Virus record (IMG/VR): IMGVR_UViG_3300044446_000044
Span: 1 to 27,776 of that record
Length of the DNA stretch: 27,776 bases
Strand: one strand, 5' to 3'
DNA from: a virus
Taxonomy: Duplodnaviria > Caudoviricetes
The notes below the pieces were generated by a model, which saw only the letters and a list, made by a program, of their open reading frames with translations, was not told where the DNA came from and made no database searches. The position numbers were made by a program, and so were the translations under genes. Below are positions 2,868 to 19,885 of the stretch, one piece after another (position 1 is the stretch's first letter; every line of letters begins with the position of its first letter).

Positions 2868-3889
2868 CGCTCCTCCTCGAAGTACTCTGCCATAGGATGT
2901 CGATATTTTCCATCGCGCGTGCGTTCTTGAAACGCGATAACGAGACGTCTGCCAACATATGCATCAGCGTTTACTGCGAAGTCTGCACGCCAGGCATCAT
3001 TCAAGCTTTTTACGGTGATCTCTACTCCCATGTCATCGCGGAGTTGAATCATGGCATGAGGACCGAGAAGTCCAGGGACGAAGCCGATTACCGTCATCCG
3101 TGTAGTGCCTTCCTTCTTAAGCTTGAGCCATGCCTTACTTCGCTTCCCAGGTTCGTATGCCGCGTCCTTCCTCTTCAGAATTCCTCCCTCTCCACCCCTA
3201 TTCCAGAGCATGTGGAGGTTTTCTTCTGTCGGGTCGTACTGCGGAGCGACGGATAGGCCCTCAGCATTCCCATACCCTTGTGCATGCTCGAGCTTCGCTC
3301 CGACATGTTGGAGCATCTGGCGGCGAGCAATTCCACCGAGGTCCATGACGTTGGCGTTCTCCACGCGAAGCACGTCGAAGAAGACCAAGGACAACTTCTC
3401 GGCATTTTCCAGCGCCTTGACATCTGTCGACGTTCCGCCAGGTAGGTAGAGTTCTCCGTCAAACGTTCCATCCGGCACAAACGTCTTGATCGACGAGACG
3501 AGATGCGGAGGAAGTTCACGAGCGTTGCCGACGCGTGACCACGCCAGAGGATTCTCCCCCGCTCTCGTCGTAAGAATCAGTCGGTGGCCGTCGAACTTCT
3601 CTTCCAGCGCCCATTCTTCTCGCGAGTAGTCAGCGACAGACTTTCCAGCCAGCGGCTTCGAAGCTAGCATCGGAGAGATGGGATGGGATCCATCGTAGGC
3701 CGCTGGCGGAGTCCAATCTCCGGTCGACCCATCCCGAACCGCTTCTGTGTGTCTACATTCCGCGGGCGTCGCGCGTGAATACATAAACGACTCGCACGAG
3801 CACGAGATGTTTACATCATCATCCGACAGCGTGACCGTATGCGGAAGGCCAGGTCGGCTCTTCGACTTAAACTTATACGTCTTCGGCAT
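2864..3889 (-). CDS. lig: ATP-dependent DNA ligase with N-terminal SWIM Zn finger
   Basis: Motifs EEKFDGHR, FDGELY, FFDVL, EGGILK and WLKLK; N-terminal CSC...CRH; GAGGAGG RBS before ATG at 3889. Confidence 0.92.
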   Translation of the reverse strand: MPKTYKFKSKSRPGLPHTVTLSDDDVNISCSCESFMYSRATPAECRHTEAVRDGSTGDWTPPAAYDGSHPISPMLASKPLAGKSVADYSREEWALEEKFDGHRLILTTRAGENPLAWSRVGNARELPPHLVSSIKTFVPDGTFDGELYLPGGTSTDVKALENAEKLSLVFFDVLRVENANVMDLGGIARRQMLQHVGAKLEHAQGYGNAEGLSVAPQYDPTEENLHMLWNRGGEGGILKRKDAAYEPGKRSKAWLKLKKEGTTRMTVIGFVPGLLGPHAMIQLRDDMGVEITVKSLNDAWRADFAVNADAYVGRRLVIAFQERTRDGKYRHPMAEYFEEER

Positions 3890-4286
3890 CGTCTGCCTCC
3901 TCATCCAATTCGTTCAGGTCGCCGAGCGCTCGAGTCAGGACTTGCGCACGCGCGGTGTCTGCGACGTCAGTTGCTCGGATCTTGACTCGCTTGTAGACGG
4001 TCGTATACGACAAATCCAGCCGCTTCGCTACGGCCGCGATTCCATTCAACCGGATCTCCTCGATGATCTCGTCCGTCACGTCGAACTTCTGATTGTTCGG
4101 TCCGCCCTGCTTCCGAACGTCGATCTTCACGCGTTCAAGGGCCGTCCGGATGGTATTCCGCGAGACGTCAAGTTTCGTCGCCAGTTCGGAAATCGAGAAC
4201 CCCCGCGTTACGTAGAGGTCGGTCCAGAGCTCGAGCTCAGATCCGTACCCCAACTGCGAGGCGGTCAACTCCCAGGAAATCGGCAT
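3873..4286 (-). CDS. Tandem helix-turn-helix DNA-binding protein
   Basis: SISELATKLDVSRNTIRTAL and IAAVAKRLDLSYTTVYKRV. Confidence 0.8.
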   Translation of the reverse strand: MPISWELTASQLGYGSELELWTDLYVTRGFSISELATKLDVSRNTIRTALERVKIDVRKQGGPNNQKFDVTDEIIEEIRLNGIAAVAKRLDLSYTTVYKRVKIRATDVADTARAQVLTRALGDLNELDEEADDAEDV

Positions 4287-4303: not shown

Positions 4304-5167
4304 TCATATCGTCCGATCACCGGACGTCGGTAGACGATCATCCAGTGCAAGGTTCGTTAGTCGGTCTGCCGCGGTGTTCTTTTCCCGCGGGATATGTTCG
4401 TACGTGACACGCGAGACGCGTTGGGCCAGCCCTCGGGCTTTCGTGTGAAGAGGAACGAGTCCAACGTTCCGGACTTGATAGACGCTCCTCATCTGCTGAA
4501 CGAGGAGGAGAGAGTCGGAGCGAAAGATGACGGAGTCCACTTCGTGCGATGCAGCCCATTCCAGTCCGGCGATCAGTCCTCGATACTCTGCGACATTATT
4601 CGTTGCCGTTCCGATCCTCGCTCCAAACTCTTCGATCACCGAACCGTCAGGCCGCTCGACGCGAACTCCGAAGGCAGCAGGCCCCGGGTTTCCACGCGAC
4701 CCACCGTCTGTGTAGATTACGACCGAGTCAGGCATGTGCTCTCCTACGTCTGTGGACGTTAGAAAATCTTCGCGAAAAATTTGATGGCTTTCGTCGGACA
4801 GGATTCGGACGAAGCTCTCCGGGAGAATGACGTTGGGCGGTGCGCCACGGAAGAACGGAGCGATGTCACGCGGAGCGTAACCTGCCAAGCCGCAACCGAT
4901 TTCGACAACATCAAACTGGAGGTCTGGATGCATTCCTACGTACTGCAGGAAGATGCTCACGAACATCTGGATGGCGTCGAGCGACAGCGTACGAATCCCT
5001 GCATCCTTTGTCGGAATGGCGTACGCCTGGCCTTGTCGACCAGCTCCTATTCCATAAGCCGCACCGTGGTGTCGTAATGCGTGCAAGGCGGATCCTGCCC
5101 CGTGCCTTCCAGCGAGGTTCGATCCGAAGACGAAGATGTGTTCGGGCGTTTCGGGCGTTTCGGTCAT
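4304..5167 (-). CDS. rnhA: Fusion of a macrodomain-like phage domain (A1S_2505-like) and ribonuclease HI
   Basis: N-terminal IFVFGSN..GRHG.G, YAIPTK and IGCGLAG; C-terminal YTDGGSRGNPG, TNNVAEY, SDS and N..AD catalytic motifs. Confidence 0.88.
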   Translation of the reverse strand: MTETPETPEHIFVFGSNLAGRHGAGSALHALRHHGAAYGIGAGRQGQAYAIPTKDAGIRTLSLDAIQMFVSIFLQYVGMHPDLQFDVVEIGCGLAGYAPRDIAPFFRGAPPNVILPESFVRILSDESHQIFREDFLTSTDVGEHMPDSVVIYTDGGSRGNPGPAAFGVRVERPDGSVIEEFGARIGTATNNVAEYRGLIAGLEWAASHEVDSVIFRSDSLLLVQQMRSVYQVRNVGLVPLHTKARGLAQRVSRVTYEHIPREKNTAADRLTNLALDDRLPTSGDRTI

Positions 5168-6219
5168 TTGGATAGAAGGAGAAATTTCGTGTCCGGAAGA
5201 AGCTTTCTGTTTACCGAGGTCGACTGAATGAAAATATCGTACAACGGATGGGAGGCAGGCGATACCTTCACCTGATCGTGCGGGGGCAAGCCGAGGAGCG
5301 TGCGGGCATCGGCCCCTGTGTAGACCGTATGTGCTCTGCGTTCGTAGAGCGCAATCGTCTTCTGCGGTTGGACGACAACCGGCTTCGTCAGTTGATAATA
5401 GCCTTCCCCGAGAACGTACGGCCGGTGCGTCTCTTGCTCGACGAAAGTCGAGATCGGGATTCCGACTTTCTCATCTCGATTCCATCCGTGGATAATATCC
5501 CACGTAATCGTCGACATGCGAAACTGGCCGGGTCCGAGCCTCGTCATATTCGCGACGGTCGACGGCGCCAGACGGTCTGTCTGCAGCACGAACAGATTCT
5601 TCGTTCCGCGCACGCCTTTCGACCGACCCGCCATGTAATCGTCCGTCACGCGTTTGATGGTCTCACCAACCTCCATCATGCCTCGAGCGTCTGCGCTCCA
5701 GACGGCGATGTTGTCTTTCATGAAGCCGAACTTCTTCGCCTCATGCACGCCTTCGGCATTCGGTACGAAGACCGCGACCGTCCAGTTGTCAGGCAGGCTC
5801 CCTAGCCGCTGCGTCAGGACTCTCGGATCCGTCTGACTATCATTCTCCTGCCCATCTGTCAGGACGTAGGTCAGAAAGGCGTGATCGCCATACAGCTCAG
5901 GAGTCTTCGCGAGGTCGTCCAGTGCTTTCAACGTCGCGTCGATCAGGGCAGTCTGACCGTCTGGCTTGTACAGCCCGCGGAGAGACGGCAAGCGCAAGAC
6001 GTCCTTGTCGTAGAAGAGGCACTGGATCGTTCGTCGATAGCTGAAGCGGTAGACGGTCACCCGCGTCTCTTGATCGAGTTCTTTCGATCGATTCGCAAGG
6101 TGCTTGATCTGAGCGTCTGCCACGTCCACTACCTGCTTTTCGAGCTTCGCCATTGAGCCGGACGCGTCGAGTACGAGAGCGATGTGATTGATGTAGTTCG
6201 GAGTCGGTGTCGTCGTCAT
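5164..6219 (-). CDS. von Willebrand factor A domain protein with additional C-terminal domain
   Basis: MIDAS DASGS, TALIDA and LTDGQEN; start at 6219 inferred from ATGA overlap. Confidence 0.88.
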   Translation of the reverse strand: MTTTPTPNYINHIALVLDASGSMAKLEKQVVDVADAQIKHLANRSKELDQETRVTVYRFSYRRTIQCLFYDKDVLRLPSLRGLYKPDGQTALIDATLKALDDLAKTPELYGDHAFLTYVLTDGQENDSQTDPRVLTQRLGSLPDNWTVAVFVPNAEGVHEAKKFGFMKDNIAVWSADARGMMEVGETIKRVTDDYMAGRSKGVRGTKNLFVLQTDRLAPSTVANMTRLGPGQFRMSTITWDIIHGWNRDEKVGIPISTFVEQETHRPYVLGEGYYQLTKPVVVQPQKTIALYERRAHTVYTGADARTLLGLPPHDQVKVSPASHPLYDIFIQSTSVNRKLLPDTKFLLLSK

Positions 6220-6350
6220 GTCCTTCGTCCTTTCCGTCTGCGCCGTTGAGCGGTCGGTCCGAGTGATCGCATCCACCAACCGTCGGTTACGAGTCGCGTA
6301 GTTGCGTCAGAGTCGTATTCCATTCGGATGAGACGATGAAGCAAGTTCAT
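6216..6350 (-). CDS. 44-aa basic peptide (MNLLHRLIRMEYDSD...RRRRKGRRT)
   Basis: Read manually; ATGA overlaps at both ends. Confidence 0.55.
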   Translation of the reverse strand: MNLLHRLIRMEYDSDATTRLVTDGWWMRSLGPTAQRRRRKGRRT

Positions 6351-6703
6351 CTGAGTTGCGTCTCCTGCAGGTGATGGGAGAGAAACTCACGGAGCTTCGC
6401 GGTTGTCTCATCCGTCAGATCGTTGTATGCTACATACATCGAAACGGTCCACTCGGGCTCAAGCCGCAGCGCGAGGAGAGCGTGGTCTTCGAGGAATGAC
6501 TTGGGCGGATGCTCTAGACGTCGCCTGAGATCGTTCGCCGCGACAATATCACACGAGACTTCGTGACCGCCATCGAACGCACACGAGCAGAGGACGGGCG
6601 AATCCGGATTGCGCTCAGCTTCGTGGAAGTATGTAGTATCAAGCTTTTGGAGTTCCCGGTCCTCGAAGAGCATACGGTATGTAATCGGCCTAGGCTCGTT
6701 CAT
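6347..6703 (-). CDS. Hypothetical protein (CSC...H..SC motif)
   Basis: 118 aa, ATGA coupled. Confidence 0.65.
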   Translation of the reverse strand: MNEPRPITYRMLFEDRELQKLDTTYFHEAERNPDSPVLCSCAFDGGHEVSCDIVAANDLRRRLEHPPKSFLEDHALLALRLEPEWTVSMYVAYNDLTDETTAKLREFLSHHLQETQLR

Positions 6704-6894
6704 CGGAAGTTCTCCGGACCGAGAATGATGTGCCGGAACTTCGGCCTATCGGCGTGCTTCGCACGAATCCGTGCCCAAGTTCTTGCGACAGTGATATACC
6801 GTTCCGCCGTGAATCTTCCTTCCTGCCGCCAAAGCCACCACGTCCGTTGTTGTGGGAAGAATCCGTCCTGCGTTTCGACGATTCGATATTCCAT
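6700..6894 (-). CDS. Small hypothetical protein
   Basis: 64 aa; YRIVE...F.PQ.R.WW.W pattern typical of small phage proteins; coupled overlaps. Confidence 0.7.
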   Translation of the reverse strand: MEYRIVETQDGFFPQQRTWWLWRQEGRFTAERYITVARTWARIRAKHADRPKFRHIILGPENFR

Positions 6895-7052
6895 CAGTGT
6901 CTTCGAGGAATCCGGTGAACGATCATGGGGAGAAAGACGACGATCGTCTCGAGGCAGATTCCCCAGACGCTTGGCCAGTTGTCGTAGACAATCCAGAGGC
7001 CAACGGCCGCAAGGCTGATCTCCGCGAGTAGTTCCGTTCCGGCAGTTGTCAT
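6894..7052 (-). CDS. 52-aa membrane protein (two hydrophobic segments)
   Basis: Read manually: MTTAGTELLAEISLAAVGLWIVYDNWPSVWGICLETIVVFLPMIVHRIPRRH; overlaps at both ends. Confidence 0.6.
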   Translation of the reverse strand: MTTAGTELLAEISLAAVGLWIVYDNWPSVWGICLETIVVFLPMIVHRIPRRH

Positions 7053-7216
7053 GGCGTCCTCAGCTGACCGTTGTCATCATACCGCCAGTAGGGTGGTTGA
7101 TCGTCTGAAATCCACTTCGGGTAGTCCAATGGGTGCGTCATCCGAATATGATCCTTCACTCCGCCCTGCTCGCAGTGCTTCCTGCAGAAGGGACAGATGG
7201 GAGCAGTTCCACCCAT
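7049..7216 (-). CDS. 55-aa C2H2 Zn-finger protein
   Basis: Read manually: MGGTAPICPFCRKHCEQGGVKDHIRMTHP...; ATGA overlap with the next gene. Confidence 0.65.
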   Translation of the reverse strand: MGGTAPICPFCRKHCEQGGVKDHIRMTHPLDYPKWISDDQPPYWRYDDNGQLRTP

Positions 7217-7217
7217 T

Positions 7218-8072
7218 TCATTTCCCTAGGGACAGAAATCGATTCTTGACCTGTCCAACGAACTCGATAAACCGGGGATCCTCCGAGATACCCCGATGCC
7301 AGCAGAGATCGAGGGCGGCCAGGTCGTATTGTTCGACAAGACGGGCGCCGGGGAGAAAGCTTCCAGGCGATGCCGGATCCGCCTCCAACCCCATCAACCA
7401 GACGGTGTCGGAAACGCTCATCCCTTCCGTCACGTCATGCGTGACAATGATGATTGTGTTCAGTTCGTCAAGTGTCGACACTTGCGTGATCAGCTCGCAG
7501 GCCCGTCGCTTGTTGATGAGGTCCAAGCCGGAAAAGGGTTCGTCCATGACCAGGAAGTGGTCAGAGCACATCAGCTGACGGATGATTGCGATCCGCTGAC
7601 GTGTGCCTCCTGACAGGTCTCGAGGATAATACTTCCGATACTTCCAGACGTCGAACGAGTTCATCAACGACAGACCCTTCTCCTGGATCTCGTTCGGCCT
7701 CAGCCCAGCCTGCTTTCCGGCTGTGGTCAGATTATCCTCGACGGTCATAAAATCGAACAGCGGATATGCCTGCGGCACCATTCCGACCATGCCCTTACGG
7801 ACGGTCGAGAACTTGATCGACGATGGAGTCGACGACGTGTTCACCTGGACGGAGCCAGACGACGGCTGTTGCAGCCCCGCGATAATTCGGGAGAGGAGCG
7901 TTTTTCCAACGCCCGACGGACCGAGAAATGCTATGACCTGTCCCTGCTGGAGATCAGGGCGTACGATGTTCTCAATCGTCGCGTTGACGTCTCTGAGGAT
8001 CAACGTCCCGCTGAGCGTGAGTGAGACGTGATCGATTCGAAGGATCGTCTCGCGCTTTTCGTAGACGCTCAC
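7218..8072 (-). CDS. ABC transporter ATP-binding protein (NitT/TauT-like)
   Basis: Walker A GPSGVGKT, Q-loop MVPQ, signature LSGGTRQR, Walker B/D-loop VMDEPFSGLD, H-loop VTHD. Confidence 0.95.
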   Translation of the reverse strand: MSVYEKRETILRIDHVSLTLSGTLILRDVNATIENIVRPDLQQGQVIAFLGPSGVGKTLLSRIIAGLQQPSSGSVQVNTSSTPSSIKFSTVRKGMVGMVPQAYPLFDFMTVEDNLTTAGKQAGLRPNEIQEKGLSLMNSFDVWKYRKYYPRDLSGGTRQRIAIIRQLMCSDHFLVMDEPFSGLDLINKRRACELITQVSTLDELNTIIIVTHDVTEGMSVSDTVWLMGLEADPASPGSFLPGARLVEQYDLAALDLCWHRGISEDPRFIEFVGQVKNRFLSLGK

Positions 8073-8851
8073 TTCGTCCTCCGCGCATACGGACAGATGA
8101 CCGATCGAAGCCAGACCAGCGTGAAGTCCTGCGCGAGTCCTACGAGGAGGACGGTCGCCGCGACGGCGTAGACGACACCGTATCTCATATATTTCTGCTG
8201 CTCGAGGATTAGGACGCCAAGTCCACCTTCGGTTCGGATGAAGCCTTCGACAAACATAATCGACGACCAGCCCATAGCCGCGTTGTCACGAACTGCGTCT
8301 ATAGCTTGTGCGACGGTTCCGCGAACGACGACGTACCAGGTCACGGTCCATTCGCTCATCCGGAGGGTTCGAGCGTCATCGAAGGCCGCGGAGGGGATCG
8401 CTTCCACGACTCCGACCATAGTCGTCGTGAGGAAGAATGTTTCTCCCAAGGCCAGCATGAGGACTTTCACTTCGTGGCCGGAGGACGTTGCGAAGAGGAG
8501 GAGGAGGAAGAAGACCGCAGGGCTCAGGAAGCGGAGCTTCGAAACGGCGATGGCTACTGGCCGGATGATCGGTGTCAATGACAAATACGCCAACGGCAAG
8601 GACACGATCGTGGACAGCACAAGAGCTTCCACGTTCGTGGAGAAGGACGAAACGACTTCCGCTCCGAGTCCCTCCCTCGACCACAAGTCTGGAAACTCCG
8701 CCAAGACTTCCAAAGGCGTAGGGAAGACCGTCGGTTTGAAGAACGTCCAGTACGTAAGCCAGACGATCGTCCACCCGACGATGATCAGCTTGGCGGTGTT
8801 ATCGGAGACGGCCTCATTCGGCGTGATGATTGCCCGAGCCTCGCCTGTCAT
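8069..8851 (-). CDS. ABC transporter permease (NitT/TauT-like)
   Basis: About six hydrophobic segments; FPTPLEV motif, EAA-like loop FDDARTLRMSEW, GGLG motif. Confidence 0.9.
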   Translation of the reverse strand: MTGEARAIITPNEAVSDNTAKLIIVGWTIVWLTYWTFFKPTVFPTPLEVLAEFPDLWSREGLGAEVVSSFSTNVEALVLSTIVSLPLAYLSLTPIIRPVAIAVSKLRFLSPAVFFLLLLFATSSGHEVKVLMLALGETFFLTTTMVGVVEAIPSAAFDDARTLRMSEWTVTWYVVVRGTVAQAIDAVRDNAAMGWSSIMFVEGFIRTEGGLGVLILEQQKYMRYGVVYAVAATVLLVGLAQDFTLVWLRSVICPYARRTK

Positions 8852-8892
8852 CTTGCCTCCACCAGTGGTGCAGCCGCGTCAATGGTCATTCG

Positions 8893-9123
8893 CTATTCGC
8901 TCCTCAACTCGTTTCGGACCTGCTCTAGAGCTTCAGGATGATATTTCTTCAGAAATCGGGCGACCAGAATCGGCCAGCCGTCGTCTCGTCGATGTCGGAC
9001 TTCCTCCAGCTCTTCGATCGTGCGAAGCTCTGTGGAAGAGACCGTCACGCGAACCTCTGCTGAATACGCTGAAATCGGGCGTGGCGCCTTGTGCTTCCGC
9101 TTGATGACGATAATCAGAGACAT
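8893..9123 (-). CDS. Hypothetical protein
   Basis: 76 aa; ATG immediately follows the upstream stop. Confidence 0.6.
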   Translation of the reverse strand: MSLIIVIKRKHKAPRPISAYSAEVRVTVSSTELRTIEELEEVRHRRDDGWPILVARFLKKYHPEALEQVRNELRSE

Positions 9124-9792
9124 TCAGCGCGCCACCCAGACGCGGTCTGTGATCCGTTGATATGTTGACTGAAGCTCGTAGTAGATCCTCTGGGCCAGCC
9201 TCTTGACCGGATTGTTGATGGCGGTCCAGACGAGAGACCAAGGCCAATAGGCGATCCAGGCGAGAAACCGACCCTTATGCTCGAGTGTGTCCGTTTTCTT
9301 CGCCGCGACGACGGTCCTCCACTCGTCTTGGAGTTCTGCAGGAACGGTCGTTCCCGACGCGTGTTTCGAACGGAGGAAGCCTTCTCGTACCTTAGCGAAC
9401 TTGTCCGTCTCTACCACCCACCACTTGACAATCGACCATAGGCCGCCGGCCACGAAATACGCGGCGAGGAAGACGATCGACTTCCACGGATGGTGGAGGA
9501 GGTACGATCCGACCTTCACGTTGCCGAAGGCCTGTAACAGTCCTAGGATGATGATGATCGAGATTGTAACGACGACCCCGCCTGTCTCGTCGTCTTCATC
9601 ATCCAACGCCCAGAAGATGAAGATGGATTCCAGGACGACGATCGCCCAGAAGAGCGTCGTCCCGAAGAGGAGGTTGGCTGCCAGGAAGCCAGCTGTCGTA
9701 GCCCACGCGACTGCGAGAACTGCCACGGCCGGGACGTAGAGGAAGTAGCCGATCGCTGCGATGACGATTATCACTCCGAGGTAGAAGGTCAT
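9124..9792 (-). CDS. Multi-pass membrane protein
   Basis: Five to six hydrophobic segments; Trp-rich C-terminus WIAYWPWSLVWT; ATGA overlap. Confidence 0.8.
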   Translation of the reverse strand: MTFYLGVIIVIAAIGYFLYVPAVAVLAVAWATTAGFLAANLLFGTTLFWAIVVLESIFIFWALDDEDDETGGVVVTISIIIILGLLQAFGNVKVGSYLLHHPWKSIVFLAAYFVAGGLWSIVKWWVVETDKFAKVREGFLRSKHASGTTVPAELQDEWRTVVAAKKTDTLEHKGRFLAWIAYWPWSLVWTAINNPVKRLAQRIYYELQSTYQRITDRVWVAR

Positions 9793-11591
9793 TTCGTCCC
9801 CAGGATGATGGTCACCCGACGATTCTTCGCGCGGCCGGTTTCTGAGGCGTTCGAATCAACGGGCATCGTATCGCCGAAGGCCTTGACGTTGATGCGGGCT
9901 GCGGGGAAGAGAGCTGGGGCTTTCGCCGTTAGCCAATTCTTCACAGCGAACGCTCGAGCTTCGCTCAGGGCTTTGTTTGCCACGGCGTTCCCCACGTTGT
10001 CGGTATGCCCATCGATCTCGATCGAAAGAGAACCTATCGAGACGGCCTGGAAGAGTTCGTCCAACGTCGCTCGGGCAGCTGGAGTGAATGAGGCCTTGCC
10101 TGTGTCGAATGTAATCGACCAATCGCGCTTCGCGACGACGTTCTCCTTTTCGATTGCGCCTTCAGAGAACGAAGCCGTTTCCGAGGGAGTCGTGGACATG
10201 CGCTTCGCGAGGGCTTCGATGTATTGCGTGTTGACGACTTCCTCAACAGGAGGGTAGTCAGCCACGAGCCGCGGATACTGTTGCTTGACGATCTTGCCGA
10301 ACCCGTCATACGTCGCGTTGAAGAGCGAAGACTTCAGACTGCCTCCCGATCCTTCGGCCAGACCGAAGAACATGAGGTTGTCTCCGAGATTCGCGGTACG
10401 CGACCCGCCGAGTGGGATCGGCAAGCCTTTCCGATCTGACTCGATCACTCCCTTATAATACTTCAGCCAGTAGGTGGCAGACTCCTCTTTCAAGATCGCG
10501 AACTGTGCGAACGACGCCCTCTTCAGCGCCGCGTCATATGTCCGAATCTGATTCGAGCCGTCGAACGCGGCGGCCAGCATCTCTTCGACCTTCTTCGGAT
10601 TCGCCTTCCCCCATTTGCGTATTCCGACGACCGTCGACGGCATCTGGTTCGCGTTTTCTTTGGTCGAGAGAATCTTGACAATCCCACCCTTCTGATGGGC
10701 AACGGTCACGTCTCCAGGCGTCCACGTAACCACTCCCTGAACACAAGCATGCTTCTTCTCGCCTGTCTTCTTTCCGTCGCGAACAACTTCACGATCCTCA
10801 CAATAGCCGGACGTGAACAGCTCTCCGGCCTTGACGAAGTCATCCGTCGCAGCCCAGTTCAGCGCGTCGGGGTCCCAAGTCCGCTCGTCGGGATTGTTCT
10901 TGACCTTGTTCTGGAGAAGGTAGTAGAGGGCGAGGTTCCAGTCGCCGTCTCGAAGGACTCCTGCGACGAGTCCGCCTTTCATCGTCGACGGATCCAGCTT
11001 CCAGTCTTCCGGTCCCATGAAGGCGTCTTCGCCGGATATGGAATTACCGGAGAAGCCGACGATCCCGACGACTTCGGCGAAATATTCCGATCCGAGCTTG
11101 GCGACGCCTGTGTTGATACCGGCCACGTACTGTGCCGCCCCATCTCCCATGATAATCGCGTAGTGTACGCCGGAGGCCGGATTCGCGTCGGACGCGAGAG
11201 CATTGGCGAATTTGACTTGTTCCGCCTGCGTCACGTTCTGATCGTTCTGTCGAGCGATCATCAAGCGAATTCCGTGCTTCTCCATCAGTGAGCCCGTCGT
11301 GGTCATCGGCCCGCCGTTGGCGAAGGCCAGGCCGAAAGTCGCATTCCACGGAATCGTGTTCAAACGGATCTGCGGTCCGCGGGCAGCCGCCGGAGCGGTC
11401 GCTGGAAGAGGAACTGCGTCGGTCGTCTCCGCTTTCGACGCCGGAGCGTCGGTCGGCAGACTGAATTCTTCCGGCACAACCGACTTCTGTACGAACCGTC
11501 CGGGCAGCATGTTCAGCTGAACAGCAATGACATACAACACGAGCGTGCCTACAGCCGCTAACCCGACTTTTGTCATCCACGTGAGCTTCAC
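9789..11591 (-). CDS. Membrane-anchored periplasmic solute-binding protein fused to C-terminal OmpA-like peptidoglycan-binding domain
   Basis: True start GTG at 11591 (GGAGG RBS, GTGA overlap); N-terminal TM; SBP-like core (VTWTP); OmpA motifs FDTGKA, IDGHTDNVG, LSEARA and NRRV. Confidence 0.88.
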   Translation of the reverse strand: MKLTWMTKVGLAAVGTLVLYVIAVQLNMLPGRFVQKSVVPEEFSLPTDAPASKAETTDAVPLPATAPAAARGPQIRLNTIPWNATFGLAFANGGPMTTTGSLMEKHGIRLMIARQNDQNVTQAEQVKFANALASDANPASGVHYAIIMGDGAAQYVAGINTGVAKLGSEYFAEVVGIVGFSGNSISGEDAFMGPEDWKLDPSTMKGGLVAGVLRDGDWNLALYYLLQNKVKNNPDERTWDPDALNWAATDDFVKAGELFTSGYCEDREVVRDGKKTGEKKHACVQGVVTWTPGDVTVAHQKGGIVKILSTKENANQMPSTVVGIRKWGKANPKKVEEMLAAAFDGSNQIRTYDAALKRASFAQFAILKEESATYWLKYYKGVIESDRKGLPIPLGGSRTANLGDNLMFFGLAEGSGGSLKSSLFNATYDGFGKIVKQQYPRLVADYPPVEEVVNTQYIEALAKRMSTTPSETASFSEGAIEKENVVAKRDWSITFDTGKASFTPAARATLDELFQAVSIGSLSIEIDGHTDNVGNAVANKALSEARAFAVKNWLTAKAPALFPAARINVKAFGDTMPVDSNASETGRAKNRRVTIILGTK

Positions 11592-12565
11592 TGTCTGCCT
11601 CCGGTCTTCGTTTTGACGTTGTCGTTGTCTGCCGTGATGTTCGATGAAAGTGGTTCTGCGAGGGCCTTTGGAGAGGCAGCAGCCGCGAGGCGCGCTCTGG
11701 CTGCATCGGCGTCGACCTCCCTCTGCAGGCGCTCCTGCTCGACGACGGGATCTGCCTGTCGGAGCAGTTGAACGATCTCTGCTTCGGCCTCGGACGACTG
11801 ACGTTCGATCTCTTCGACTGCCATATCGATGACGTCGAGATCTGCCGACCGACCGAAGAAGGCGCGATACGACTTTGCTTGGGCAGCCTCGGCCTTTAGC
11901 GCGTCGAGCTGGATCGCGTAGACGTGTTTCTGGGTTTCGAGATTCGAAAGTCCGCGAAGCGCCATCTGATGGGCTTCTTCGATCTTCAACTGCCGAGCCT
12001 TTTGCTTTGCTAACATCGGTTCGAGCGTACCTGCGGCTTTTCTCCACCGTTCCGAGGCCACGAAGTGGAGATCGACATCGGCCTTGGCCTTCCCCGCCTT
12101 CTCCAGCATCTGAGCGAGCCGCTCTTCATTCTCCGCCTGATCGAGGACGCCCGACTTCCGGTCTGGATGCCGAATCTGTTTTTCCAAACGGGCCGTGGCC
12201 GCGTTGGCTTCGCGTTGACGGTCTTCAGCCTCCTCGATCCGGGCATCAAACCGACTGATAGCTACGTCAATCGCACCGATCGGGTCAGACTGAACAACTT
12301 TCCGTCTGATCGACCGGGCAATCATTTTCATCTTGAGGTAGAATGCATCCCTCGAAAGAAACGCCTGCCCCGCGAGGATCATCATGAAGACGGCGACGAA
12401 GAGCAGACCGAAGAAGACGACCGTATCCTTCGCGAGCTCGACCAAGAACGGCATGATGATGTAGAGACCGTATCCCGCCCCTCCGAGGGCTAGTAGTATC
12501 CCCGCAAACATCATCCCCAGGACGACCTTGTCATATTTCTTCAAGGCGATATCAGGAACATCCAC
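11588..12565 (-). CDS. Two-TM plus long coiled-coil protein, PspA/IM30-like
   Basis: Two N-terminal hydrophobic helices, DPIG motif, then about 220 aa of Ala/Glu/Arg-rich heptads; AAGGAG RBS. PspA similarity is inferred from architecture only. Confidence 0.7.
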   Translation of the reverse strand: MDVPDIALKKYDKVVLGMMFAGILLALGGAGYGLYIIMPFLVELAKDTVVFFGLLFVAVFMMILAGQAFLSRDAFYLKMKMIARSIRRKVVQSDPIGAIDVAISRFDARIEEAEDRQREANAATARLEKQIRHPDRKSGVLDQAENEERLAQMLEKAGKAKADVDLHFVASERWRKAAGTLEPMLAKQKARQLKIEEAHQMALRGLSNLETQKHVYAIQLDALKAEAAQAKSYRAFFGRSADLDVIDMAVEEIERQSSEAEAEIVQLLRQADPVVEQERLQREVDADAARARLAAAASPKALAEPLSSNITADNDNVKTKTGGRQ

Positions 12566-12606
12566 TTGCCGTCTCCTTCCACTAATTGACTTGTGACGTA
12601 AATCGT

Positions 12607-12635
12607 ATTCTATTCCAATCGTCGTTCGATTTCCA
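12607..12635 (-). promoter_or_regulatory. Putative sigma70-type promoter for the envelope/ABC module
   Basis: Minus strand TGGAAA-17 nt-TAGAAT, about 40 nt upstream of the 12565 start. Confidence 0.4.
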
Positions 12636-12906
12636 GGGACGGCGGGACGTCCAGTAAGCCTTCATGAAGTTTGGATAGTCGACAACTAGTCATGTCGAAT
12701 CCTAACGACCCTCCATCCGAGCCTTCGATGTGATTCTGCCGAGCGGCCTCCGGATCCGCAGGAGCTCCCGACCAGAACTTCTGCGCACAAACCTCCCGCA
12801 TCTTCTCACGGATAATCTCGGCGAGACTCGGGAACGACATGTCTTCCACACGTACAATCTGGGGAACAGCCGCCGCGGCGTCCATCGAGGGGTCTATAAA
12901 TCCCAT
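12610..12906 (-). CDS. Hypothetical protein
   Basis: ATG at 12906 with GGAG; 98 aa. Confidence 0.5.
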   Translation of the reverse strand: MGFIDPSMDAAAAVPQIVRVEDMSFPSLAEIIREKMREVCAQKFWSGAPADPEAARQNHIEGSDGGSLGFDMTSCRLSKLHEGLLDVPPSLEIERRLE

Positions 12907-14321
12907 GCAATTGGCTCCAAAATGTACTCCTTCGTCACGGCATTCCACGCAACCAGCTTACTGTCCCTGAGAGTAGCCATCGCGCGTTTGAATTGCTCAG
13001 CATTCATATGAGAGCTGTTTGATCGAAGAAGCGCCGAATGTTCGATCGTGCCGCCTGCGGATCGAAGGTCGCGTAAGATCCGAGCGTGATCCTCTCCCGT
13101 TGCAGATGAAGTCAGTTGATCGAATGTACCAGGGAGGTATGCCTCTAGCCAACCGAGGATGCGTTCAGCATACATCAGATCCTTGTCGTTCAGAACGAGA
13201 TCCTTCTCATCCGTCATCGCCGCAATCTTCATTATCATCGCCACGCGAAGCATGTGGTCGGGCTTACGCTCGAAATATCCGGCAAAACGCTTGTCTCCGG
13301 CTAGCGCTGCGCGAGTGTCGTACCAGTTTCGGTACCAGGCGTCGCCGTGTGGTGTGAGGGTGAACATTCCGCGCTTGGCTTTGATCTTCGACAGCTTGGC
13401 GATTAAGATCTTCCGGATCTCCGGATCAAGTGGAGGGGGAAGCGGAAAGGAACGGGGAGTCGAGTTCTGAATGACAAACAGAAATCGACTCATGAACCCT
13501 CCGCCGAACGAGTCTGCGGGGATGGAGGTCTTCAGCCAGTCAGCGGTTGAGCAGAGAAGGGCGGAGAGAGCCACGTTCGTAAGAGACGTATCCCCTCTTC
13601 CAATCGTCTTCGACACCCATTCATCAGGACAGTCGAAAAGCGCTGTCAGCAGGGGAACCATCCCCTCCTGATATTTCTGCTTCCCAAGGAAGACGGCAAG
13701 CTCCGGAGCGTAGATCAACCCTGTTGCATTCACCTGGGTCTTCAGCGCGTCGACGAACGCTTCTGGAGTCGTCTTGTCCGCTAAGACCGTTCCTCCGACC
13801 TTTGCCAGAAGGCGCGTCCCAAGATTACAGGCGGACGTCTTTCGACAGCGTCCTGTCGGTGCGATTATCATCACGCAGAGGTTGGGAAAGACTTTATACG
13901 CCCCTTTATCGAAAGAGATGGAGCGTCCGAGTGCCGAGCCGATCACGGTTGCAGCAACGAAGAAGTGAAACGCGGTTGGTGGTTCCGTTTGGCGGGTCCA
14001 TCGAACGTACTCAGCGATCCAGCCTTCCTCTGGCATCAAATCATCGAAGTCTGCCCGTCTGTCGATCTGCCTGAGAACCGACGCGATCTCTGCAAGAGAC
14101 TTCGAAAAGACCTGGGAGATCATCGACAACAGAGCTTCCGGCCGTTGTCCTTGCGGGAGTTCTAGCATCCAGGTACAGACGTCTGTAAACAACTCCTCCG
14201 TTGCGCGGTTCCGAGGAAGTGCTGAGAGCATTGTCATCATGCGTGATATCTGTTGTCCTACCGACAGCTTCTTCGTCGATGGGACATTCCGGAGTGCTAC
14301 CGGATCAGGGATTTTCGTCAT
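12894..14321 (-). CDS. DUF3987/YfjI-type P-loop NTPase (probable replicative helicase) with C-terminal winged helix
   Basis: EPP..FH, NL.VMIIAPTGRCRKTS, TTPEA, PEL and GGGFMSRFLFV motifs. Confidence 0.8.
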   Translation of the reverse strand: MTKIPDPVALRNVPSTKKLSVGQQISRMMTMLSALPRNRATEELFTDVCTWMLELPQGQRPEALLSMISQVFSKSLAEIASVLRQIDRRADFDDLMPEEGWIAEYVRWTRQTEPPTAFHFFVAATVIGSALGRSISFDKGAYKVFPNLCVMIIAPTGRCRKTSACNLGTRLLAKVGGTVLADKTTPEAFVDALKTQVNATGLIYAPELAVFLGKQKYQEGMVPLLTALFDCPDEWVSKTIGRGDTSLTNVALSALLCSTADWLKTSIPADSFGGGFMSRFLFVIQNSTPRSFPLPPPLDPEIRKILIAKLSKIKAKRGMFTLTPHGDAWYRNWYDTRAALAGDKRFAGYFERKPDHMLRVAMIMKIAAMTDEKDLVLNDKDLMYAERILGWLEAYLPGTFDQLTSSATGEDHARILRDLRSAGGTIEHSALLRSNSSHMNAEQFKRAMATLRDSKLVAWNAVTKEYILEPIAWDL

Positions 14322-14328
14322 CCGTTTT

Positions 14329-15069
14329 CTACGCGGTACATACTGACTTTAGGATACGAATATTCTGTTCAACCGCGCGGACTTGCGCTTCGGTTAGATT
14401 ATCGAGATTTAAGAGGTCGGAAGACGCTAGCTTCGCACCACGAAGTGTGCCGGCGTTGTCATCGATCCGTCGAAGCTCGACTCCATGCTTGACACATTTA
14501 CCGGTGTCGACAGACCAATCGATCAAGGGCGTCTCACGAGCGATTTCCACAAATGAGCGGAGCTCGGAAAGTTCGTTCACGCCCAAGAGGTGGATCCTCT
14601 TCCACTGCCGGAGGATCGTTGCCTTGTTTTCATGATACCACATGAGTCGGTCTTCTCGATACGGGAGGAGCAACATAGACGCCGACGAAACGTTTCGAAG
14701 GTAGTTCTTACGCTCCGCAGATGAGCGTCCGGCCATCGACACGCCGACGGAGAACTCTCCTCCGATCGTGGTTAGCGTCTCTTGGAAGGACTTCTCGTTC
14801 CACTCCGGTTCTCCGAGCTTGTCCGGGGCTATGATAGTATCCGCCTTACATCGGCGAGCCGCCTCCAGAAGATCGGCGATCGGCAGTGGATGGCCGAGTT
14901 CATGAAGGGAGTTGTCCATAAGTAGCTCCCGCGAGGTAGGCCGAGATGCGAAGTAGCCCGCATAGGTCTTGTCTTCTAGGACCTTGTGGGCTAATACGAA
15001 ATCCATATCGCAGAACGGCGACCACCACTGAAGGTAGGCCGACGGCACTTCGAGCGACATCCGGATCAT
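14329..15069 (-). CDS. TGT-fold protein, putative DpdA-like deazaguanine DNA transglycosylase
   Basis: LLMDNS, IIAPDKLG, IHLLG and SVDTG occur in the order of the TGT/DpdA conserved motifs; GGAGG RBS and ATGA overlap at 15069. Confidence 0.65.
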   Translation of the reverse strand: MIRMSLEVPSAYLQWWSPFCDMDFVLAHKVLEDKTYAGYFASRPTSRELLMDNSLHELGHPLPIADLLEAARRCKADTIIAPDKLGEPEWNEKSFQETLTTIGGEFSVGVSMAGRSSAERKNYLRNVSSASMLLLPYREDRLMWYHENKATILRQWKRIHLLGVNELSELRSFVEIARETPLIDWSVDTGKCVKHGVELRRIDDNAGTLRGAKLASSDLLNLDNLTEAQVRAVEQNIRILKSVCTA

Positions 15070-15284
15070 ACATCCTCCCGCGCCGGCGTGTCGAGCCATT
15101 CTCGATCGGCTCGTCGAGGAATGTAGCGAGGACGTTCTTCTTCGTACATGATCTGAGCGAGCATGGCCGCTTCACGAGCTTCGGTGGGAGTTGTGACGCC
15201 TTCCCTCATCGCACGGTGGAGCTCATCGACAAGACGGTGGAAGAGGGCGTCGGTCAAGTATCGTTCACGCGGAGTCATTGGCAT
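15066..15284 (-). CDS. Small helical hypothetical phage protein
   Basis: 72 aa; AGGAG RBS; RY..D..F..LVD...TP.E.R.AA pattern. Confidence 0.7.
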   Translation of the reverse strand: MPMTPRERYLTDALFHRLVDELHRAMREGVTTPTEAREAAMLAQIMYEEERPRYIPRRADREWLDTPAREDV

Positions 15285-15305: not shown

Positions 15306-17909
15306 CTAGCCGAGAAGGTCTTCGACGCCTAGGTGTTGTTCGAGTTTCTTCCGTTCTTTCTTGATCTTTTCGTTCTTCGATTTACACATGGACCAGTTGG
15401 ACCCGATGTGAATGTCGGCCGGTACGAACCAGCCGTTGGGATAGTACTGCATGACAATGTCGGGATTGGCCGACGCATCCACGACCTGCGGCCAAGGCCG
15501 TTGCATGTTCGTTCGGATACAGACAAGCGTTTCTCGAATAATATCCTTCGGACAGTTGATCACGACCTCGTCGTGGACGGTCAGTCGGAGGGTTGCGCCG
15601 GCCGGAAGCTCACGATCGAGGGCAATGAGCTGCTCGATCATCTGGTCAGCGGCAGTAGACGACGCAGGGTAGTTGTAGATTTCTGTGATCTCACGAGTCC
15701 ACCACCAGCGACGCCTCTTCCACGCGTTGGCGAGGTAGTGCTGACGATGAACGAGAGCTGGAAGGCTTTCTCTCCAGGCGTGAAAGACCTTAAACCGCGA
15801 GAAGAACCGACCGATGAATCGTTGGACAAAGGCGAAGTCGAGATTATGACCTTCAGAAATCGACGCTGCGCCACGGCCGTAGCCGAGACCGTAGACGATG
15901 AATTTCGAGGCGTGACGTTCGTCGTCCGTGATAGTTTCAATCCGCCGCCCGAGCGTCTCAGCTGCCACCGCTTTGTGATTGTCAACGCCCGATGCGAGGA
16001 GTTCGAGACCGACAGGATCTCCGGATAGGACCATCGCGTTCCGCCACTCGATCTGGGAGGAGTCGGCAGAAATCAGAACGCAGTCGTCGTCGTCTGCGAT
16101 CCAAATATCCCTCATCGTCTCCGGGACGTTCTGAGCGTTGGGGTTCCAGCTGTTGAACCGGCCGTTCGAGGCTTTCGACACCCCGAACCGAGCGTGGACG
16201 CGTCCTTCCGCCACCATCGGCTGGACGAATGTGGAGTCCATCTTTCGGAGGTGACGGATGTCGACAATGGACCGCAGGATGACATTCTCCGGAGCCAGAG
16301 TCGCGAGAACTTCCAAGGCTTCCTTGTTAACTGTCGGAACACGCCCTCGCTTCTTGTCCTGATTGTATTGAACCTGCAAGCCGAGCTTTCCGTAAAGCAG
16401 CTCCATCAGCTGTTTGGGACTGTTGAGGTTCAGGCCGGGATCGCCGAGACCTTCTTTCAGGACGGCTTCTAGCCGGTCCGCGTTCTCCTGGAGCATGATC
16501 GACCACGATCCGGCCTTCTCCAGATCAATGTTCACCCCTCGTTGGGTCATTCTCCGAAGGATCGGATGGACAGGCAGGACATGATCGTAGTACAGTTCGA
16601 GCATGTCGTACTTCTTCAGCTCAGCTTTCAACCCGTCGACTGGATGCATCGCAGAGCGATCAGTCGCGATCGAGTCCGTCCCACAGACTCCCTTCAGATC
16701 GTCTTTGTAGTCCTCTCGAGATTTCCAATATTCAATGTCCGTATGGTTCGAGGCGATGAAGGCGAGGTCCTTCTCGGCCCCGCGCGCCCGGAAGTCGCCG
16801 GCGTTCTGATCTCCTATCGTCGTTTGGCCGTAGGACGAGTTCGTCAAGTGAAAGGCGACCATCGTGTCGAAGACGCGCGTCCACCTTATCCTCGTTCCTT
16901 TTTCCTCGGCGAACGGGAGGTCGAAGTTGAGTATGTTCTGGCCGATGATTTCGATCTTATCATCGTCAAGTAGCTCTTGAAATAGGAGCTTAGTACCAGT
17001 GGTCCAATCGAACACGTAAGCCGTGTCTGGCCGCGGAACAATTCCGCACATGAGAATCGAACTGCTACTCGCAGAGAGCCCGGTCGTTTCGAAGTCGAAC
17101 GTAAAGGCGCCCCTTGCTCTGATATCTGCAAGCACAGACTCTCGATCACGCGTTGTATTTGCATCACGGACAATGTTGACCGGTATACGCTCGATCTCGG
17201 GGAACCTGCTTTGAGCTTTCGCTCGAAAAAGGTCGTGGACTGCGAACGGCCAGTAGTACTGGGCTCGGGCGATGAAGGCAGGATGCCACGTGGGGAAGAC
17301 TTTATACGGCCGGTCGTCCGTTTCTTCGATACTGTCGACGACGACTCCTGCTGCTGCGAGGAGCGGTCGTCTGCGTGGTCCGGCTGTTGGCACTCCTCGC
17401 CAGAGACCGATTTTCTTTTTCTCCGTGAGGACTCCGAGGGCTGTATCTCCTGCCGCGATGATGACGTTCGGGTCGACATCTGCAATCTCCTCCTGGAGGA
17501 AGTGGGCACAGCACCCGATTTCGTGGTTTGTCGGATTCCGATTGTCCGGCGGTCGACACTTGACAGTGTTCGTGACGAACGTCTGCGTGTCTCGGTGAAT
17601 TCCGGCATGTGCGAGGAGGGCGGTCAACAGGCGACCCGACCCTCCGATGAAAGGTCGGAAGCGTTCAGGCTTGAATCCATATCCGCGGACACAGCCGGGG
17701 GCTGGAGGGCCGTGTTTTTCTTTGTCATACGCAGGAGGCCAGTCGACCTCTTCAGCTCCCGGGCCTTCTCCTAGCAGAAGGATCTTCGCCGACCGATTTC
17801 CCGTCCCCCACACTGGTCCAGGTTCTTCCCACAGCGTACAGACGCGGCACGCATCCGGCTTACCGAATGGATTATCGGCTGTTGGTGGGACTTTTCGAGG
17901 TTCAGACAT
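15306..17909 (-). CDS. polA: Family A DNA polymerase with N-terminal family-4 uracil-DNA glycosylase domain and 3'-5' exonuclease domain
   Basis: UDG: CRVC, GEGPG, PFIG, NTVKCRPP, WHPA. Exo: FDFETTG, N..FD. Pol: ADSSQIE, RHASKFIVYGLGYG, VHDE. Confidence 0.95.
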   Translation of the reverse strand: MSEPRKVPPTADNPFGKPDACRVCTLWEEPGPVWGTGNRSAKILLLGEGPGAEEVDWPPAYDKEKHGPPAPGCVRGYGFKPERFRPFIGGSGRLLTALLAHAGIHRDTQTFVTNTVKCRPPDNRNPTNHEIGCCAHFLQEEIADVDPNVIIAAGDTALGVLTEKKKIGLWRGVPTAGPRRRPLLAAAGVVVDSIEETDDRPYKVFPTWHPAFIARAQYYWPFAVHDLFRAKAQSRFPEIERIPVNIVRDANTTRDRESVLADIRARGAFTFDFETTGLSASSSSILMCGIVPRPDTAYVFDWTTGTKLLFQELLDDDKIEIIGQNILNFDLPFAEEKGTRIRWTRVFDTMVAFHLTNSSYGQTTIGDQNAGDFRARGAEKDLAFIASNHTDIEYWKSREDYKDDLKGVCGTDSIATDRSAMHPVDGLKAELKKYDMLELYYDHVLPVHPILRRMTQRGVNIDLEKAGSWSIMLQENADRLEAVLKEGLGDPGLNLNSPKQLMELLYGKLGLQVQYNQDKKRGRVPTVNKEALEVLATLAPENVILRSIVDIRHLRKMDSTFVQPMVAEGRVHARFGVSKASNGRFNSWNPNAQNVPETMRDIWIADDDDCVLISADSSQIEWRNAMVLSGDPVGLELLASGVDNHKAVAAETLGRRIETITDDERHASKFIVYGLGYGRGAASISEGHNLDFAFVQRFIGRFFSRFKVFHAWRESLPALVHRQHYLANAWKRRRWWWTREITEIYNYPASSTAADQMIEQLIALDRELPAGATLRLTVHDEVVINCPKDIIRETLVCIRTNMQRPWPQVVDASANPDIVMQYYPNGWFVPADIHIGSNWSMCKSKNEKIKKERKKLEQHLGVEDLLG

Positions 17910-19321: not shown

Positions 19322-19885
19322 TTATCTATGAGGAATTCGGATAACGATCCAACCAGCTGATCTGAGAAATGCATCTCTGGTCATGTCTTCATCGGGTGCG
19401 CCGACGTGGAATGGACCGTCGAGCTCGATGTTAATCTTGAGACGTGAATGAGCAAAGTCTAGCTCGTACTTCTCGCGTTTACCGTCACTGCCATGCGCTA
19501 CAAAGAATGTCCGCATGAATCCTGCAGGACATAAGATCCGCGCATACGCCGCACCAGTATCTCCACCTTGATATGCATACGCACCACCAAAACCTTTTCC
19601 TGTCATGCCTGCTGAGATAGCAGCTTTATGGCTTTCCGCAAGCGGACGGCCCAGTAGTGCGTCCGACTGCTTTTGTTTCTGTTCCTCTGAGGCTGGAATT
19701 CCCTTATTCCACGCTGGAATTCCTCGGCGGTTCTTCGACATCAGTTCTATGGACTCTTTCGAGTGTCGTCCTCCTGTCTTTGCAGCAGATATCTTTCTTG
19801 CTGTTTCTTCGGAGTGATGCCATCCACCTAACCTCGAATGCTTCTCACAGTCACAATTCGGCGGGCATGGTTGATTGCCTGGCAT
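19322..19885 (-). CDS. Free-standing NUMOD3-repeat plus DUF559 homing endonuclease
   Basis: HHSEETARKIS, HSKESIELMS and PAWNKG; LDFA...KINIELDGPFH...D..RDAFLRSAGWIVIRI; start inferred from TGATG overlap. Confidence 0.85.
   Translation of the reverse strand: MPGNQPCPPNCDCEKHSRLGGWHHSEETARKISAAKTGGRHSKESIELMSKNRRGIPAWNKGIPASEEQKQKQSDALLGRPLAESHKAAISAGMTGKGFGGAYAYQGGDTGAAYARILCPAGFMRTFFVAHGSDGKREKYELDFAHSRLKINIELDGPFHVGAPDEDMTRDAFLRSAGWIVIRIPHR

Follow-up and report, generated by a model that had tools for sequence, protein, structure and literature searches.

A four-gene phage module that joins a predicted transmembrane PspA-like protein to a putatively wall-tethered solute-binding protein and an ABC transporter

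Introduction

The stretch of DNA considered here, which we call the window, measures 27,776 nucleotides and constitutes one complete linear record of the IMG/VR virus collection (IMGVR_UViG_3300044446_000044; Duplodnaviria, Caudoviricetes), with a CheckV completeness of 35%. Its minus strand carries a group of genes whose products are predicted to bring together a membrane-anchored relative of the bacterial proteins PspA and Vipp1, a solute-binding protein fused to an OmpA-like domain, and the permease and ATPase of an ATP-binding cassette (ABC) transporter. In what follows, we describe this module gene by gene, trace it through other viral and bacterial genomes, and weigh several accounts of what it might do for a phage.

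The Locus

Six unbroken minus-strand open reading frames (ORFs) span positions 7218-12565. Four of them form the core of the module: gene 1 (11588-12565, 325 amino acids), which encodes the transmembrane (TM) PspA relative and is hereafter called TM-PspA; gene 2 (9789-11591, 600 amino acids), which encodes the binding protein and starts at GTG with GGAGG upstream; gene 3 (8069-8851, 260 amino acids), the permease; and gene 4 (7218-8072, 284 amino acids), the ABC ATPase. Between genes 2 and 3 lie two passengers, namely a gene for a 222-amino-acid membrane protein with about four TM helices by hydrophobicity (9124-9792) and a putative gene of 76 amino acids, recognised as an ORF only and belonging to no family (8893-9123). 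Successive ORFs overlap by four bases at three junctions (GTGA, ATGA and GTGA), abut at one, and are separated by 41 bases at another.

Ahead of the module, at 12602-12635, a sigma-70-like promoter candidate agrees with the consensus at nine of 12 positions. A promoter had been put forward here in a preliminary description made from the sequence alone, and the idea fares unevenly. The promoter scan as a whole performs at chance level, with five sites against 3.0 +/- 1.9 expected. The site is nevertheless kept in L171 (loci are numbered L throughout), a phage contig that shares the insertion described below: all 11 bases around the -10 hexamer are unchanged, as are nine of 12 around the -35 hexamer, at equal spacing. 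This conservation between two sequences lends modest support to a site whose promoter function is predicted. A pattern derived from these two sequences is no test, as it necessarily fits them, and one unrelated locus contains the identical 11-mer once as well.

A Membrane-Anchored Relative of PspA and Vipp1

Taken alone, gene 1 matches no family in Pfam, NCBIfam or PHROG, PF04012 included, and a word-indexed search returned just four homologs. Through one of its relatives, L006 (32%, E 3e-28), it joins a wider family that precedes the binding-protein gene in most viral loci and comprises 998 clusters at 50% identity (profile E <= 1e-30). The profile of this family aligns over 213 columns, covering helices 0-4, with the soluble PspA proteins found in the bacterial operons to which we return below (HHalign 95.8%, E 8e-9), and the 21 bacterial proteins used in that comparison all match PF04012. 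Against the PDB, the same family profile ranks Vipp1 first (E 1e-6). An AlphaFold model of gene 1 (predicted local distance difference test score, pLDDT, 81.5) likewise returns Vipp1 at Foldseek ranks 1-6 (best E 7e-4), and VIA-align superposes it on PspA with Z 9.7 and a root-mean-square deviation (rmsd) of 2.3 over 123 aligned residues, the PspA/Vipp1 structures ranging from Z 9.4 to 9.7. It is the sequence profile that carries the claim of kinship, since a wide structural search does not separate PspA from other helical bundles. Judged by these profiles, gene 1 is a divergent homolog of PspA and Vipp1, and thus of the ESCRT-III superfamily, with a predicted TM hairpin. The earlier reading of the lead gene as a coiled-coil protein with two TM helices and PspA kinship therefore holds: hydropathy places two such helices, the model contains a long helical hairpin, and the kinship is that just described.

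The protein begins with the two-TM hairpin (residues ~14-66), continues with a basic amphipathic helix (72-93), and ends in the long helical hairpin. Basic residues flank the TM hairpin at both ends. By hydropathy, 60 of 76 family members have two TM helices, 11 have one and five have three; all 21 soluble PspA proteins of bacteria have none. The amphipathic helix aligns with helix 0 of PspA, displaced behind the two TM helices. Its segment 75-92 has a hydrophobic moment of 0.47, compared with a family mean of 0.36, 0.23 +/- 0.12 in shuffled sequences and 0.57 in bacterial PspA; net charge is about +2 in both families, and the amphipathicity is weaker than in soluble PspA. A second candidate identity for the lead gene, the TM-coiled-coil protein that those operons encode, was ruled out (HHalign 6%).

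A Binding Protein Fused to an OmpA-Like Domain

Gene 2 encodes, in order, an N-terminal TM anchor, a Pro/Ala linker, a type II binding domain (~70-460), a further linker and an OmpA-like domain (~485-600). Its predicted model (pLDDT 94.1) correspondingly comprises an N-terminal helix, an extended linker and two folded domains. Hydropathy finds the N-terminal TM helix in gene 2 and in 107 of 120 homologs, and no lipobox was found in these 120. The C-terminal part matches the OmpA family PF00691 at residues 494-591 (E 5.5e-20) and superposes on TagL and OmpA domains at Z 17-19 (TagL, Z 18.7). The Asp and Arg of OmpA-type domains bind the stem peptide; here Asp531 is kept in 100% and Arg546 in 98% of 154 relatives. 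By its modelled fold and these key residues, the C-terminal domain is OmpA-like and of the peptidoglycan-binding kind, and we predict that it binds the wall.

The best structural match of the binding domain is TauA (Z 27.2, rmsd 3.2, 290 aligned residues, 11% identity), followed by proteins of the CmpA/NrtA, SsuA and Thi5 types, with Z 22-27 over TauA-type importers. Identity to characterised binders in these structural alignments amounts to 8-15%. No binding-protein family of Pfam or NCBIfam is among the matches listed for this domain, and the best 60 of 89 matches of gene 2 to PDB sequences all fall in the OmpA-like part. The protein thus stands apart in sequence from the characterised nitrate, sulfonate and thiamine-precursor binders; the clustering with them that would have told against the preliminary description was not seen. 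The account given there of a membrane-anchored binding protein ending in an OmpA-like domain is borne out by the TM helix, the type II fold and the PF00691 match.

The invariant residues of the binding domain are mostly Asp or Glu, Trp, Met and Gly; Asp150, Glu188, Asp189, Asp215, Asp217, Asp294, Trp82, Trp290, Met148 and Met317 are among those conserved in 94-100% of the 154 relatives. In TauA, the amine of taurine is held by a hinge Glu and an Asp (PMC6906117). Because acidic, Trp and Met residues are near-invariant, and by analogy with TauA, the ligand of gene 2 is probably a small molecule with a positive moiety, such as an amine.

The Permease and the ATPase

Gene 3 matches BPD_transp_1 (Pfam, E 9e-6) and carries the sequence DDARTL, which we take to be its EAA-type loop. 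Gene 4 matches ABC_tran (Pfam, E 2.5e-25) and contains every motif of an ABC ATPase, as had been noted earlier: Walker A (GPSGVGKT), the Q-loop, the signature (LSGGT), Walker B with the D-loop (VMDEPFSGLD) and the H-loop (VTHD). The signature reads LSGGQ in most relatives, 91 of 136 by a crude first-match count, against LSGGT here. With a binding protein, an EAA-loop permease and an ATPase with the full set of motifs, genes 2-4 are, as far as sequence features define the class, a type I ABC importer. The equivalogs SaoP (E 8.9e-11) and TauC (E 1.4e-9) match the permease at scores well short of their cut-offs (TauC, 37.8 bits vs 342), and NtrB (16.9 vs 209) and TauB (100 vs 357) also fall far short; no transporter protein of the window reaches equivalog membership of the TauABC, SsuABC, NrtABCD or ThiXYZ systems.

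Linkage and Co-Inheritance

An alignment of the binding protein retrieved 86 viral and 328 genome loci, and we examined 80 of each, 160 in all; the viral set contains some duplicates, and the genome set is the 80 of the 328 loci most like the query (41-49% identity). TM-PspA is present in 76 of the 80 viral loci, as counted with a profile built from these same loci, the permease in 75, the ATPase in 74 and an upstream helical partner of 220 amino acids in 73; the TM-coiled-coil gene and the AAA+ ATPase gene of bacteria each appear once. The 80 genome loci hold the permease and the ATPase in 74 apiece, and, since many genome contigs are short and their neighbour counts lower bounds, the TM-coiled-coil gene in at least 55, soluble PspA in at least 25, the AAA+ gene in at least 22 and TM-PspA in at least nine. 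The upstream partners of viral and bacterial loci share homology (HHalign 97.7%). The nine genome loci with TM-PspA are L107, L115, L152, L160, L161, L163 (Longimicrobiaceae), L146, L155 and L145, and because several lie amid ordinary cellular genes, phages are not the sole carriers of TM-PspA.

Over 63 non-redundant viral loci, the window included, the four core genes yield concordant trees (Spearman 0.37-0.71, against a maximum of 0.21-0.27 after shuffling), and all four place L006 as the sister of the window. By these computations, the four genes move and evolve as a set. The coiled-coil gene and the transporter thus co-occur as first surmised, and the intact system is one of four genes and not of five: the ORFs are unbroken and lie where they had been placed, and the 222-amino-acid membrane gene falls outside it. 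The 160 loci contain no homolog of that gene or of the 76-amino-acid ORF, and both were rejected as module members. Homologs of the former occur in 20 viral loci, none with a module gene within 5 kb, and its closest Atlas clusters are mostly viral hypothetical proteins; the latter has no match in Pfam, NCBIfam or PHROG, in line with the earlier description of an unrelated-looking interleaved gene. Transporter genes are separated by gaps of more than 250 bases in 49 of 72 viral loci, as opposed to three of 63 genome loci, so interleaved DNA is normal for phage copies. A von Willebrand-type (vWA) gene downstream (5164-6279, minus strand; VWA E 1.2e-5, Pfam) had also been suggested as a partner. 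This does not hold up: partial homologs alone were found, in two or three of the 80 viral and none of the 80 genome loci, and full-length homologs are present in cultured phages that lack the module.

Complete transporters of this kind had been presumed rare in phages, and the 86 viral loci show them to be common. Among the 80 viral module contigs, 45 exceed 100 kb and 26 exceed 200 kb. A set of 50,697 cultured-phage records yields a single match to the binding domain, an uncultured 462-kb record that the permease also matches, along with, weakly, Bacillus phage G; the TM-PspA gene finds no match there, and plasmids gave no match. A metagenome scan with a narrow alignment added one locus, L178, which comprises TM-PspA, the binding protein, the permease and the beginning of the ATPase gene but no upstream partner. 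In the trees, bacterial loci with soluble PspA form one clade inside the viral diversity. The roots are midpoint roots and the genome set holds the 80 of 328 loci closest to the query, so we claim no direction of transfer. L016, a 478,840-base IMG/VR contig, is of the bacterial form, with the TM-coiled-coil gene and a bacterial-type partner after the ATPase; it groups with Armatimonadota copies, a separate capture.

No catabolic or biosynthetic enzyme family is among the most recurrent neighbour families. The 45 most recurrent ORF families, 12 representatives of which were scanned, likewise include no recognisable TerD, TelA or similar family; the link to Ter-type stress loci that had been drawn earlier gives way to the PspA/AAA+ operon outlined in the accessible text of PMC11237479. 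In 13 of the 80 viral loci, the neighbourhood of the module includes a second binding-protein gene, of NMT1/TAXI-like type (e.g., L075:11101-12036), and in L059 such a gene (6065-6955) stands between TM-PspA and the OmpA fusion. Another two membrane-type genes, both unnamed, are recurrent neighbours in 14-15 loci.

These observations bear on one alternative to a membrane function, namely that genes 2-4 are a plain nutrient or cofactor importer, an auxiliary metabolic gene set to which the PspA-like gene would be linked as a stress gene in its own right. All transporter parts are of TauABC/NrtABCD fold or family type, and the second binding-protein gene near the module would fit an importer. 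We nonetheless regard this account as unlikely: the direct linkage of TM-PspA in 76 of the 80 viral loci, with a tree that tracks that of the transporter, is hard to reconcile with a separate gene, a tether to the wall is superfluous for ordinary uptake, no enzyme that would use the substrate recurs nearby, and identity to characterised binders is as low as given above.

The scarcity of the AAA+ gene invites another account, in which the complex is not a transporter at all but an ATP-driven coupling device, its permease and ATPase pulling on the wall-tethered protein to control PspA and its ABC ATPase replacing the AAA+ motor. The binding protein appears fixed at both ends in the manner of MotB or TagL, and AAA+ genes accompany one of 80 viral loci vs 22 of 80 genome loci. 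However, the bacterial operons hold both ABC and AAA+ ATPases, which therefore have separate jobs there, and type I importer permeases are not known to act by mechanotransmission. The transporter-free operon PspA-PBPB-TM-Snf7 listed in Table S3 of PMC11237479, as far as the accessible material goes, implies that the binding protein may signal without transport. On balance a coupling device strikes us as very unlikely.

Insertion, Age and Selection

The module lies within an accessory block (4304-12635, minus strand) that also contains two short ORFs, the vWA gene and a fusion of an A1S_2505-family domain (residues 11-119) with RNase H (148-278) at 4304-5167 on the minus strand. The block is flanked by a primase-like gene (12894-14321) and a helix-turn-helix (HTH) gene (3873-4286). 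Eleven IMG/VR contigs encode a close polymerase, and eight of them show DNA beyond the primase. In seven of the eight, representing about five distinct lineages, the HTH gene lies 3-188 bases from the primase, and the site is empty; in the eighth and closest, L171 (polymerase 66%, primase 68%), TM-PspA follows the primase and the contig then ends. With the primase-HTH site empty in seven of eight related contigs, the block is most simply read from these alignments as a lineage-specific insertion. It would also be an old one, because the TM-PspA of the window has diverged to 36% from that of L171 and because codon use in the block matches the phage core (r 0.90-0.92, with 0.89 for core against core). 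The long residence in the phage proposed at the outset is thus supported by codon use, but most close relatives lack the block.

The binding protein is 53-56% identical to two relatives, and third positions of shared four-fold codons match at 32-38%; taken with the permease, identity to relatives is 52-56% and synonymous sites are saturated. Saturation of synonymous sites alongside conserved proteins indicates purifying selection on these genes. This tells heavily against the notion of a decaying, recently captured host operon, useless to this phage. In favour of decay are the loss of the upstream partner, which is absent next to TM-PspA in the window, L006, L171 and L178, and a few departures from the family consensus. 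The frames are intact, however, the nearest relatives are viral and the codon use is that of the core, so that decay is largely refuted and scarcely credible.

The distribution of the block bears more on the idea of a conflict module, which would block superinfecting phages or counter membrane-damaging (abortive) host defences by patching the membrane or removing a periplasmic signal. Absence from seven of eight related contigs combined with wide and diverse occurrence (86 viral loci, 998 clusters) would be typical of conflict genes. Against this, the binding domain is strongly conserved and not fast-evolving, PADLOC matches are limited to generic OmpA/MotB and ATPase families, and many bacteria have this operon on the chromosome (328 genome loci). 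We therefore think such a role possible, if doubtful, and note that it overlaps with the function proposed below.

A Proposed Function in Envelope Maintenance

PspA and Vipp1 form polymers that attach to membranes, remodel them and restrict proton leak; in type I importers, a ligand passes from the binding protein to the permease; and peptidoglycan is the ligand of OmpA-like domains. Combining these properties, we propose, with confidence that we would put at about even, that the module serves phage-directed maintenance of the envelope of a diderm, peptidoglycan-walled host, coupled to the uptake or sensing of a small ligand. During infection, the host polymerase would transcribe the block from its own promoter. 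TM-PspA would be a permanent resident of the inner membrane, its ESCRT-III core lying on the cytoplasmic side, as the basic residues at the ends of the hairpin suggest, and would polymerise to seal or scaffold stressed membrane in the manner of PspA and Vipp1. The binding protein would span the space from the inner membrane to the wall, catching a small periplasmic ligand and passing it to the permease, and the transporter would import or report that ligand, marking the site or time of PspA action. For the phage, the benefit would be a host kept sealed and energised up to the end of assembly. The limitation of proton leak by PspA is restated in the accessible text of a recent preprint (bioRxiv 10.64898/2026.10.24.761521).

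Several lines of evidence favour envelope maintenance: the co-occurrence of the four genes, the agreement of their trees, their persistent linkage despite wedged DNA, and purifying selection. Moreover, bacterial copies pair the transporter with soluble PspA, the TM coiled-coil protein and the AAA+ ATPase, a context for which the accessible portion of PMC11237479 offers a membrane interpretation, and the most recurrent neighbour families include no catabolic or biosynthetic enzyme.

A number of observations weigh on the other side. The wide structural comparison of gene 1 gives Z 10-11 for BAR domains and for axonemal coiled coils, above the 9.4-9.7 of PspA and Vipp1, and the PspA kinship is remote, PF04012 being matched by five of 76 family members (E <= 0.05; best 1.8e-6). 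The window lacks the upstream partner present in 73 of 80 viral loci, and profiles of the TM-coiled-coil (TM+Snf7) and AAA+ proteins find no match in it, with the record 35% complete and a distant copy possible. The permease departs from two columns conserved in more than 90% of its relatives and the ATPase signature from the usual Gln, which may reflect drifting function. The acidic residues of the binding domain are placed in the cleft by secondary structure and fold analogy and would occupy it on that basis. Finally, a literature search that covered few subscription papers found no experimental study of any module member.

A bolder version of the proposal is one that we consider quite unlikely. 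On this version, hundreds of phage lineages would have remodelled an ESCRT-III system of their hosts into a minimal machine of four genes with a membrane-fixed PspA and no AAA+ ATPase, in which a wall-tethered sensor of an envelope-damage ligand triggers sealing against membrane-breaching defences or later phages. If envelope maintenance is correct, phages use a compact ESCRT-III and importer kit to keep intact the envelope of the very cell that they are consuming. Surveys based on Pfam largely miss this kit, given how few of its members match PF04012 and the 998 clusters that exist. Among the loci examined, the window holds its smallest natural form, with four genes, one candidate promoter and no upstream partner, and so offers a convenient construct for a first test of a widespread operon.

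Genome Setting

The recognisable genes of the window lie on the minus strand and form the replication and accessory arm of a phage. Family scans recognise a family A DNA polymerase fused to uracil-DNA glycosylase (UDG), a primase-like protein, an ATP-dependent ligase, RNase H, MazG, NADAR and GTP cyclohydrolase I. If 27.8 kb represents 35% of the genome, its full size would be about 80 kb, and is probably below 100 kb. A cellular origin of the DNA was ruled out, in keeping with the preliminary description, by the IMG/VR virus record and by polymerase relatives (58-66% identity) on the 11 IMG/VR contigs. The closest cellular relatives of the binding protein, at 41-49%, come from genomes of Acidobacteriota, Armatimonadota, Myxococcota and Gemmatimonadota, and are no nearer than the viral relatives. 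Chimeric assembly was set aside as a likely cause: in the only public run with this DNA, a soil metagenome that may be the source of the window and is thus not independent, a single contig covers 7351-12904, with a depth of 11-15 over the module and its flanks and zero joints. No RNA run was listed as containing the DNA.

The UDG-polymerase fusion (15306-17909, minus strand) carries an N-terminal family-4 uracil-DNA-glycosylase-like domain. The GTP cyclohydrolase I gene (14329-15099, minus strand; family scan) and a conserved gene of 250 amino acids beside the polymerase (24667-25509, minus strand), which has no family match, adjoin, in the related phages L167 and L174-L176, ORFs that, from their translated starts, are presumably QueC-, QueD- and QueE-like. 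These neighbours suggest 7-deazaguanine modification of the DNA and make the 250-amino-acid protein a candidate for the enzyme of base exchange; its profile found one weak, unrelated match in the PDB, and PADLOC gave none. Two genes of homing-endonuclease type combine NUMOD3 with DUF559 (Vsr-like) domains (2391-2867 and 19322-19960, minus strand; Pfam). A proline-rich protein with a signal peptide and fibronectin-III-like and DUF4082 domains (20067-21233, minus strand; Pfam) is likely another envelope or surface protein.

Comparison with Known Systems

The module has its nearest described counterpart in bacterial operons that encode PspA, a PBPB+OmpA protein, a permease, an ABC ATPase, a TM+Snf7 protein and a double AAA+ protein, for which membrane remodelling linked to transport has been proposed (PMC11237479). 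As far as the accessible text of that paper shows, the order of PspA-type gene, OmpA-fused binding protein, permease and ABC ATPase is the same; in contrast, the PspA of the window has a two-TM hairpin, no TM+Snf7 or AAA+ gene accompanies it, and it is borne by a phage, phage copies having no mention in that text. For huge phages, complete ABC systems (binding protein, ATPase and permease) have been reported beside 15 of 189 pspA genes, and management of the membrane during infection has been proposed, much as here (bioRxiv 10.64898/2026.10.24.761521). The accessible part of that preprint describes no OmpA fusion or TM-anchored PspA for its 15 loci. Its screen kept IMG/VR proteins of 200-300 amino acids with a PF04012 match, and would accordingly miss the 325-amino-acid protein of the window, whose phage is moreover probably smaller than 100 kb.

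With TauABC, SsuABC and NrtABCD, the module shares the type II binding fold, a TauC-like permease and a NitT/TauT-like ATPase; it differs in a larger binding domain with insertions, the TM anchor, the OmpA fusion and low identity, and no sulfur- or nitrogen-assimilation genes are nearby in the window. With PspA and Vipp1, gene 1 shares the basic amphipathic helix, a conserved Pro, the long hairpin and short C-terminal helices; it is set apart by an integral membrane anchor predicted from sequence and model, by an identity of 14-19% and by having no PspB, PspC or PspF genes nearby. No description of a TM-anchored phage form of PspA was found in a literature search that covered few subscription papers. 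The type of operon is thus already in print for bacteria, and ABC-linked PspA for phages, in so far as the accessible texts convey; the difference presented by the window is a TM-anchored PspA that operates, as predicted here, with neither the AAA+ nor the TM-coiled-coil protein.

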